From a virus (lineage: Duplodnaviria; Caudoviricetes), in IMG/VR virus record IMGVR_UViG_3300017910_000654, positions 1 through 56,825 of that record: a DNA stretch of 56,825 nt; one strand, written 5' to 3'. Below, in pieces: positions 3,785 through 3,833 of the stretch. The notes under the pieces are model-generated. The model ran no database searches and was not told the DNA's origin. It saw nothing but the letters and a program-made list of their open reading frames with translations. How positions within the stretch are numbered: the first letter of the stretch is position 1; every line of letters starts with the position of its first letter. The translations under genes and the position numbers were made by a program.

Positions 3785-3833
3785 TCTGTCGATAGGTGTG
3801 TGCCTATCCTGATGAAGCGAAAGCAGAAACAGA
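3785..3833 (+). ncRNA. Type III hammerhead ribozyme 2 (short stem II variant)
   Basis: Stem III TCTGT/ACAGA, GTC (C3790), stem I GATAGG/CCTATC with loop TGTGTG, CTGATGA, A-GC-GAAA-GC-A, GAAA. Confidence 0.85.

Follow-up and report, generated by a model that had tools for sequence, protein, structure and literature searches.

We call the stretch of DNA analysed here the window; it spans an entire virus contig of IMG/VR, 56,825 bases long and rated as linear and 94% complete. Its source is an uncultured marine podophage whose nearest cultured relatives infect Flavobacteriia. By primase/helicase the nearest named phages are MW202828.1 (72%) and Flavobacterium podophages (41%), so the host is probably a member of the Bacteroidota. 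In the block that starts at ∼55.6 kb, passes over the contig ends and stops at 13.8 kb, all genes lie on the plus strand and are early or replication genes, including those for a GGACT domain, DnaA-like HTH proteins, an exonuclease, a primase/helicase, a helicase and a PDDEXK nuclease. The element studied here, ribozyme 2, lies within this block, between the GGACT-domain gene and a small ORF (Table 1). The upstream ORF is listed from a GTG at 2644, but the ATG at 2686 is the more likely start; its stop codon is TAA at 3751-3753. From there the order is a hairpin that abuts stem III, the hammerhead, a 19-nt leader and an ATG. The same layout is found at ribozyme 1, where the leader is 26 nt.

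Table 1. Positions of the features discussed, in nucleotides of the window.
Feature	Position	Strand	Remarks
Hairpin preceding ribozyme 1, GTGTC-N6-GACAC family	25-42	+	
Ribozyme 1, canonical type III hammerhead	44-94	+	RF00008 44.1 bits, E 1.1e-8; predicted cut after C49
Upstream gene, gamma-glutamyl cyclotransferase (GGACT/AIG2-like) domain	2686-3753	+	Pfam PF06094 78.4 bits; PHROG 2520
Strong hairpin, 10-bp stem, TTGA loop	3761-3784	+	fold -20.7 kcal/mol, z -5.45; flush against stem III
Ribozyme 2, stem III 5' strand TCTGT	3785-3789	+	pairs with 3829-3833; letters read, covariation, RNAalifold
Ribozyme 2, GUC cleavage triplet (GTC)	3788-3790	+	position in hammerhead consensus; predicted cut between C3790 and G3791
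Ribozyme 2, C17	3790	+	letters read
Ribozyme 2, stem I (6 bp), GATAGG / CCTATC	3791-3796 / 3803-3808	+	compensatory changes in 5 of 6 pairs, 20 sequences
Ribozyme 2, stem I loop TGTGTG (6 nt)	3797-3802	+	
Ribozyme 2, core CTGATGA (CUGAUGA, C3-A9)	3809-3815	+	invariant in alignments A1 and A2; element of search patterns
Ribozyme 2, minimal stem II	3816-3825	+	A3816 (A10.1), GC 3817-3818, GAAA 3819-3822, GC 3823-3824, A3825 (A11.1)
Ribozyme 2, GAA (G12-A14)	3826-3828	+	
Ribozyme 2, stem III 3' strand ACAGA	3829-3833	+	first base A15.1; 5-bp stem III
A/U-rich leader, 19 nt	3834-3852	+	between ribozyme 2 and next start codon
Downstream small ORF, 30 aa, hydrophobic, ATG start	3853-3945	+	translation
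GTGTC-N6-GACAC family hairpin with T-run, terminator-like	13847-13878	+	end of plus-strand gene block
GTGTC-N6-GACAC copies, first eight	26, 712, 1035, 1586, 2647, 3765, 5755, 6670		
GTGTC-N6-GACAC copies, last eight	10769, 13855, 19320, 36582, 43726, 53038, 55443, 56327		
TTGGATA...TATCTTNGTCTAA element	729-808, 1291-1370, 2556-2635		weaker copies 5231-5266, 13794-13829
ORF of 3105 aa	13885-23202	-	
GroEL-like chaperonin	52095-53705	-	PHROG 5725, 438 bits
tRNA gene	54621-54694	-	69 bits

All elements of a type III hammerhead are present in ribozyme 2 and in register, with all coordinates checked base by base. Stem III is open while stems I and II are closed by loops, the cleavage triplet follows the N-U-H rule with an H17 other than G (relatives have GUC, or GUU in 2 of 20), and RF00008 aligns 3809-3815 to the hammerhead core CUGANGA. 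The A15.1-U16.1 pair, formed by A3829 with T3789, is unchanged in 20 out of 20 aligned sequences, and the loops are kept among relatives as UGUGUR and as GAAA or AAAA. The exception is the G10.1-C11.1 pair next to A9 and G12, a strongly conserved feature which active natural members with U-U nevertheless do without, so that it is not strictly defining. In its place ribozyme 2 has A3816 and A3825: its stem II is just a G-C and a C-G pair below the GAAA loop, flanked by the two adenines. In the other register G3817-C3824 would be the 10.1-11.1 pair, with a single A inserted on either side.

An earlier note on this DNA had described the element as a second hammerhead with the topology of ribozyme 1, had read the stem differences between the copies as compensatory, and had drawn stem II as G-C/C-G flanked by A and A; the letters of both copies bear out all three points. 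Specifically, stem III of ribozyme 1 is TCCGT/ACGGA and its stem I TATGGA/TCCATA, the TGTGTG and GAAA loops are common to the two, and ribozyme 1 has a canonical stem II (GACC/GGTC).

How far does the window itself carry the identification? The pattern CTGATGA-N4-30-GAAAC occurs twice against 0.21 expected, and 3 of 100 shuffles reach two occurrences. In a search of an 86-nt stretch, ribozyme 2 scores 26.1 bits against RF00008 (E 4e-4), the model handling its stem II as a deletion, and in a 601-nt search Rfam does not list it at E≤10. Both ribozymes thus fall below the RF00008 gathering cut-off of 48.5 bits, which is an annotation rule and not a biological feature, and a scan of the whole window at gathering thresholds reports only the tRNA and neither hammerhead. 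A custom model finds only the two copies in the window, the next match reaching 11.6 bits; the model was trained on both copies, so that their own scores are not independent evidence. For ribozyme 2 the window alone is suggestive, and it is the comparative sequence data that are decisive.

The A-A form of stem II recurs widely. Scanning IMG/VR for GTC-N6-TGTGTG-N6-CTGATGA returned at least 117 loci; nearly all of the matches listed form a complete type III hammerhead whose stems pair, and five of the listed loci (L015, L042, L057, L073 and L083) have an A...A stem II like that of the window. When the scan instead fixed CTGATGA-AG, i.e., A10.1-G10.2, after the UGUGUG-loop stem I, 14 loci were found: 11 have the A...A form (A-GC-RAAA-GC-A, or A-GCC-AAAA-GGC-A in L057), one has a canonical stem of 5 bp preceded by an additional A, and two are not hammerheads. 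The same UGUGUG-loop scan with a base other than G after A10.1 gave no matches.

Dropping all constraints on stems I and III leaves a 22-nt string made up of the core, A-GC-NAAA-GC-A and GAAAC. This string is found in 66 IMG/VR contigs and in nine prokaryote genome contigs, where four of the matches are real hammerheads (three in Rhizobiales-type MAGs and one in a Saprospiraceae MAG) and five are coincidences within coding sequence. Counting the nine prokaryote-contig loci, the string stands in 54 distinct contexts. Of these, 26 are type III; 21 are assigned automatically to type I, by a fit that asks for a stem III hairpin, H17 and at least 3 bp in stem I; two further groups are type I by eye, with one mismatch; and the remaining five are the chance matches in coding sequence. 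Since the contexts include both type III and type I, the minimal A-A stem II serves two circular permutations of the ribozyme. The GenBank phage collection holds no copy of the 22-nt string, and blastn with the 51-nt ribozyme returned only short chance matches there, mostly within genes. Eight loci with A-A hammerheads were also searched with Rfam, which reported none of these at E≤0.01, whereas it did report the canonical copies in the same loci. Standard annotation thus misses a recurrent form, and Rfam-based surveys would undercount phage ribozymes for that reason. Two of the type I loci lie near tRNA genes: in L129 (∼900-1000 and 1030-1119) the tRNA lies ∼60 nt downstream of a type I hammerhead with an A-A stem II, and in L178 a type I A-A hammerhead adjoins a tRNA array and a tmRNA-like match.

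Among 90 distinct UGUGUG-loop hammerheads from the listed IMG/VR loci, positions 10.1 and 11.1 are occupied by G...C in 53, by G...C with an inserted U in 15 and by G...C with an inserted A in one. One further copy has G...U, nine have U...U, and 11 have A...A, a count raised by the scan that targeted CTGATGA-AG. A-U, U-A and C-G are found in none of the 90. A side observation from this set is that a GUA cleavage triplet tracks U10.1-U11.1: U-U is present in 7 of the 8 GUA copies and GUA in 7 of the 9 U-U copies (Fisher p 4e-8, for copies that are not phylogenetically independent). The GUA copies were met incidentally, because the scans demanded GTC; examples in alignment A2 are L021:8488-8544, L102:6080-6136, L109:9231-9287 and L031:9060-9116.

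Covariation was analyzed in an alignment of 20 distinct type III A-A sequences, none of which was chosen for pairing in stem I or III. Across these sequences 98.8% of cells are paired, and changes on both sides are seen for 8 of the 13 pairs, namely 5 of 6 in stem I and 3 of 5 in stem III. None of 500 shuffles reached the observed pairing or covariation score, and two of 500 reached the count of eight two-sided changing pairs. As a control, sliding the partner by 1-3 columns lowers the pairing to 27-41%. Left to itself, RNAalifold also arrives at the hammerhead three-way junction. Neither G-C pair of stem II varies in the 20 sequences, but the search pattern fixed both, and for that reason pairing in stem II is backed only by the third pair (C-G) of L057.

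The clearest comparisons come from orthologous gene junctions. Over about 11 kb, L119 matches the window at 91-98% identity, and its two ribozymes are laid out in the same way, the canonical hammerhead at position 2665 and the A-A hammerhead at position 5973. The A-A copy is flanked by the same hairpin and the same leader as ribozyme 2, but its stem I is TATGGA/TCCATA where the window has GATAGG/CCTATC. In relatives of 65-72% identity, the junction 3' of the GGACT gene carries a 3-bp A-A stem II (A-GCC-AAAA-GGC-A) in L057 and a canonical G-C stem II in L090 and L099. In MW202828.1 the same junction is a 36-nt spacer with no hammerhead, and 12 kb searched with the custom model give no match; since this nearest GenBank relative lacks the ribozyme, the element is dispensable. 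Finally, L073, which lies on the same contig as L057, in a phage ∼70% identical, has a hammerhead identical to ribozyme 2 over 51 nt, though it occupies the junction equivalent to that of ribozyme 1, so that this contig has the A-A form at both positions. As far as sequence comparison can tell, this shows that A-A and canonical stems II replace one another in evolution and are interchangeable. The surroundings of ribozyme 2 are also variable: the small ORFs that separate the two ribozymes form a mosaic when the window is compared with the ∼95% identical L119 (466-2097 vs. L119 3089-4283), and an 837-nt insertion in L119 begins just past the leader of ribozyme 2, on the 3' side of the ribozyme (3850-3857 vs. 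6049-6886).

The flanks of the hammerheads are regular as well. The 36 nt upstream fold at ≤−8 kcal/mol in 56 of 83 distinct contexts, compared with 15/83 and 12/83 for control windows (Mann-Whitney p 2e-14). From stem III to the next ATG-initiated ORF the 90 related hammerheads have a median of 23 nt (interquartile range 20-30), and this ORF lies ≤60 nt away in 83 of the 90 copies vs. 159 of 450 random positions. When the upstream hairpin is included, the nearest-neighbour minimum-energy fold of ribozyme 2 does not form stem III, but pairs the hairpin base with part of its 5' strand, so that an alternative structure may compete with the active one. In metatranscriptomes, two runs from one study contain 0.18 and 0.12 of the sampled words; the RNA contigs on 1-6000 are short and fragmented everywhere (e.g., 3549-3750 and 3857-4007) and none bridges ribozyme 2 or has an informative end there; DNA contigs do cross it. 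Contigs from the runs X18, X19 and X20 (RNA and DNA) match ribozyme 1 from loop to core only (54-93); outside this part their sequence is unrelated and includes another GC-rich hairpin, i.e., they come from another hammerhead-bearing virus in the same waters.

The hairpin upstream of each of the two ribozymes belongs to a larger set. The palindrome GTGTC-N6-GACAC has 16 copies in the window against 0.06 expected, several with longer complementary flanks that differ from copy to copy. The copies are mostly intergenic within the plus-strand block, with a few inside ORFs, and two of the 16 are followed by a hammerhead. We regard this as a putative genome-wide family of hairpins or operators. A run of T after ribozyme 2 was considered as a terminator and rejected, as relatives keep no T-run there.

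We conclude that 3785-3833, in the spacer that separates the GGACT-domain gene from the small ORF, is a real type III hammerhead and probably a functional one, and infer that it forms part of a cassette for mRNA punctuation. Judged from the comparative record, its A-A stem II is a conserved natural variant and not a product of decay. The transcribed RNA can fold into the three-way junction, in which, by established hammerhead chemistry, the 2'-OH of C3790 would attack the adjacent phosphate. The products would be an upstream RNA with a 2',3'-cyclic phosphate end and a downstream RNA with a 5'-OH at G3791. In the conserved stem II module, two G-C pairs under the GAAA loop with A10.1 and A11.1 at its flanks, the two adenines would form a purine-purine pair stacked upon A9-G12. 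In this way an early polycistronic mRNA might be divided without a host nuclease: the upstream message would retain a protective 3' hairpin, ending in hairpin-N6 with the cyclic phosphate, while the downstream message would begin with a structured 5'-OH end and two small hairpins, followed by a short leader free of structure. Stem III is short, and the hairpin flush against it could stack on it or could instead compete with it. A more ambitious version of the proposal sees in the A-GC-GNRA-GC-A stem II a structural solution in its own right and no neutral variant, which, with the hairpin and the ∼23-nt leader, makes up a self-contained punctuation cassette; this is possible, though we consider it doubtful. 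Were it true, type I and type III hammerheads alike would use an extended purine stack (A9-G12 and A10.1-A11.1) with two G-C pairs as its clamp, the A-A form would be invisible to current Rfam models, and marine Bacteroidota phages would set early mRNA ends, stability and translation by the cassette, replacing host RNase sites.

Cutting of a polycistronic message between genes has well-known parallels. The RNase III sites between the early genes of phage T7 are cut such that the upstream product ends in a hairpin, but there a host protein enzyme cuts, whereas the RNA of ribozyme 2 would cut itself. Cleavage of the synthetic RiboJ insulator gives the downstream gene a defined 5' end; RiboJ is man-made, whereas ribozyme 2 comes from a natural phage. 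In layout ribozyme 2 is like the hammerheads of satellite RNAs. It shares with RF00008 (clan CL00010) the open stem III, the capped stems I and II, the CUGAUGA and GAAA core, the GUC triplet, the 6-bp stem I and a purine-rich 4-nt loop II. It differs in having a stem II of two G-C pairs plus A/A instead of 4 bp opening with G10.1-C11.1, and in sitting in a DNA phage operon instead of a circular RNA replicon.

Closer still are the hammerheads of phages and prophages. Prophage hammerheads flank genes and cleave transcripts of about 2 kb in vitro (PMC3088659), and as in our window several copies lie on the same strand between small, non-conserved genes and are proposed to process long phage transcripts. 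The text of that paper also reports that 2-bp stems II are common, and a U10.1-U11.1 mismatch present, in active natural hammerheads; U-U is the most active of the 10.1-11.1 mispairs, which implies that A-A would be poorer in minimal constructs. Its text describes neither an A10.1-A11.1 form nor a cassette with an upstream hairpin and a fixed leader. Also known are hammerheads in which one more nucleotide stands unpaired between A9 and G10.1 (cited in PMC4209133). With G3817-C3824 taken as the 10.1-11.1 pair, A3816 would be an additional 5' nucleotide of this kind, but ribozyme 2 has a second A on the 3' side and a stem of only 2 bp. Engineered hammerheads with helix II reduced to one G-C pair cleave efficiently (PMC544870); unlike ribozyme 2, these miniribozymes and minizymes are synthetic, trans-acting and partly DNA, and have no contact between loops I and II. 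A full-text search found no paper with the 22-nt string, and no mention of a natural A10.1-A11.1 variant was found in the literature, though the figures or supplements of PMC3088659 might show one. As far as the texts of these papers go, the A-A form is new, while 2-bp stems II and U10.1-U11.1 mismatches were already known in natural hammerheads.

Of the other ways to read the locus, the one that comes closest is kinetic tuning: with its 2-bp A-A stem II the ribozyme would cleave more slowly than ribozyme 1, depend more on Mg2+ or temperature, or reverse more readily, so that the two junctions of the operon are cut to different extents. The A-A form is sequence-specific, always A-GC...GC-A and never A-U, U-A or C-G among the 90 distinct hammerheads from the listed loci, which suggests a particular structure instead of neutral drift, and it fits tuning that the window and L119 each have one canonical and one A-A copy and that an alternative fold competes with stem III. 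However, the same junction carries the A-A or the canonical form depending on the relative, and the relative with the A-A form at both positions (L073 and L057) argues for interchangeability; we therefore regard tuning as rather unlikely. The earlier note had also allowed that the element might be decaying, i.e., an inactive relic of a canonical hammerhead. The absent G10.1-C11.1 register, the low Rfam score and the nearest GenBank relative without an element would all fit, but the alignment of orthologous loci that the note had asked for went the other way, with the A-A form conserved in related phages together with covarying stems. The identical stem II recurs exactly in the 66 viral contigs and in four hammerheads of prokaryote genome contigs, stems I and III change compensatorily around an invariant core, L119 keeps the A-A stem II although its stem I is wholly re-paired, and at the gene junction the A-A form alternates with the canonical one. 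Decay is thus very improbable.

A role outside mRNA punctuation can also be imagined. The two ribozymes, 3.7 kb apart on the same strand, could delimit an RNA that is excised or circularised, or could mark DNA-level linkers at which cassettes recombine. The mosaic interval between them, the L119 insertion starting a few bases from the 3' side of the ribozyme and the 51-nt identical hammerhead at another junction of a ∼70% identical phage (L073) point in this direction, and spliced or circular products were raised as a possibility in PMC3088659. That study detected no such products, according to its text; the 19 window proteins scanned, a minority of the ORFs, include no RNA ligase or end-healing enzyme; and the tight spacing to the next start codon fits a role at the mRNA level. 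On balance we find excision or linkage improbable, though not to the degree of decay. Least credible of all is the idea that the locus is no ribozyme, but a hairpin with a T-rich tail, acting as a terminator or a protein-binding palindrome, that resembles a hammerhead by chance. The upstream hairpin is indeed one of the 16 palindromes, and one copy of these, at 13847-13878, does have a terminator-like T-run. However, a hammerhead core follows only two of the 16, and the core, the triplet and three covarying helices are found in relatives whose upstream hairpins differ in sequence.

The self-cleaving punctuation element that we favour bears on a question still listed as open, the role of hammerheads in phages and bacteria (PMC6155905, PMC6765202). 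The relatives provide a natural experiment, with canonical, 2-bp A-A, 3-bp A-A and no ribozyme at one orthologous junction. The cassette, quantified here from the hairpin through the hammerhead and the short leader to the start codon, makes mRNA punctuation independent of the host a concrete hypothesis, and it is a possible source of compact insulator parts.

Some further features of the window deserve mention. An intergenic element of 36-80 nt, TTGGATA...TATCTTNGTCTAA, is repeated just 5' of start codons and resembles the −33/−7 promoter consensus of Bacteroidota; a strict promoter pattern of this type has 3 matches in the window vs. 1.3 expected, which is not significant. On the minus strand, the contig carries a GroEL-like chaperonin gene, one tRNA gene and a 3105-aa ORF with no PHROG match at E≤1e-5, which may encode a giant virion protein.
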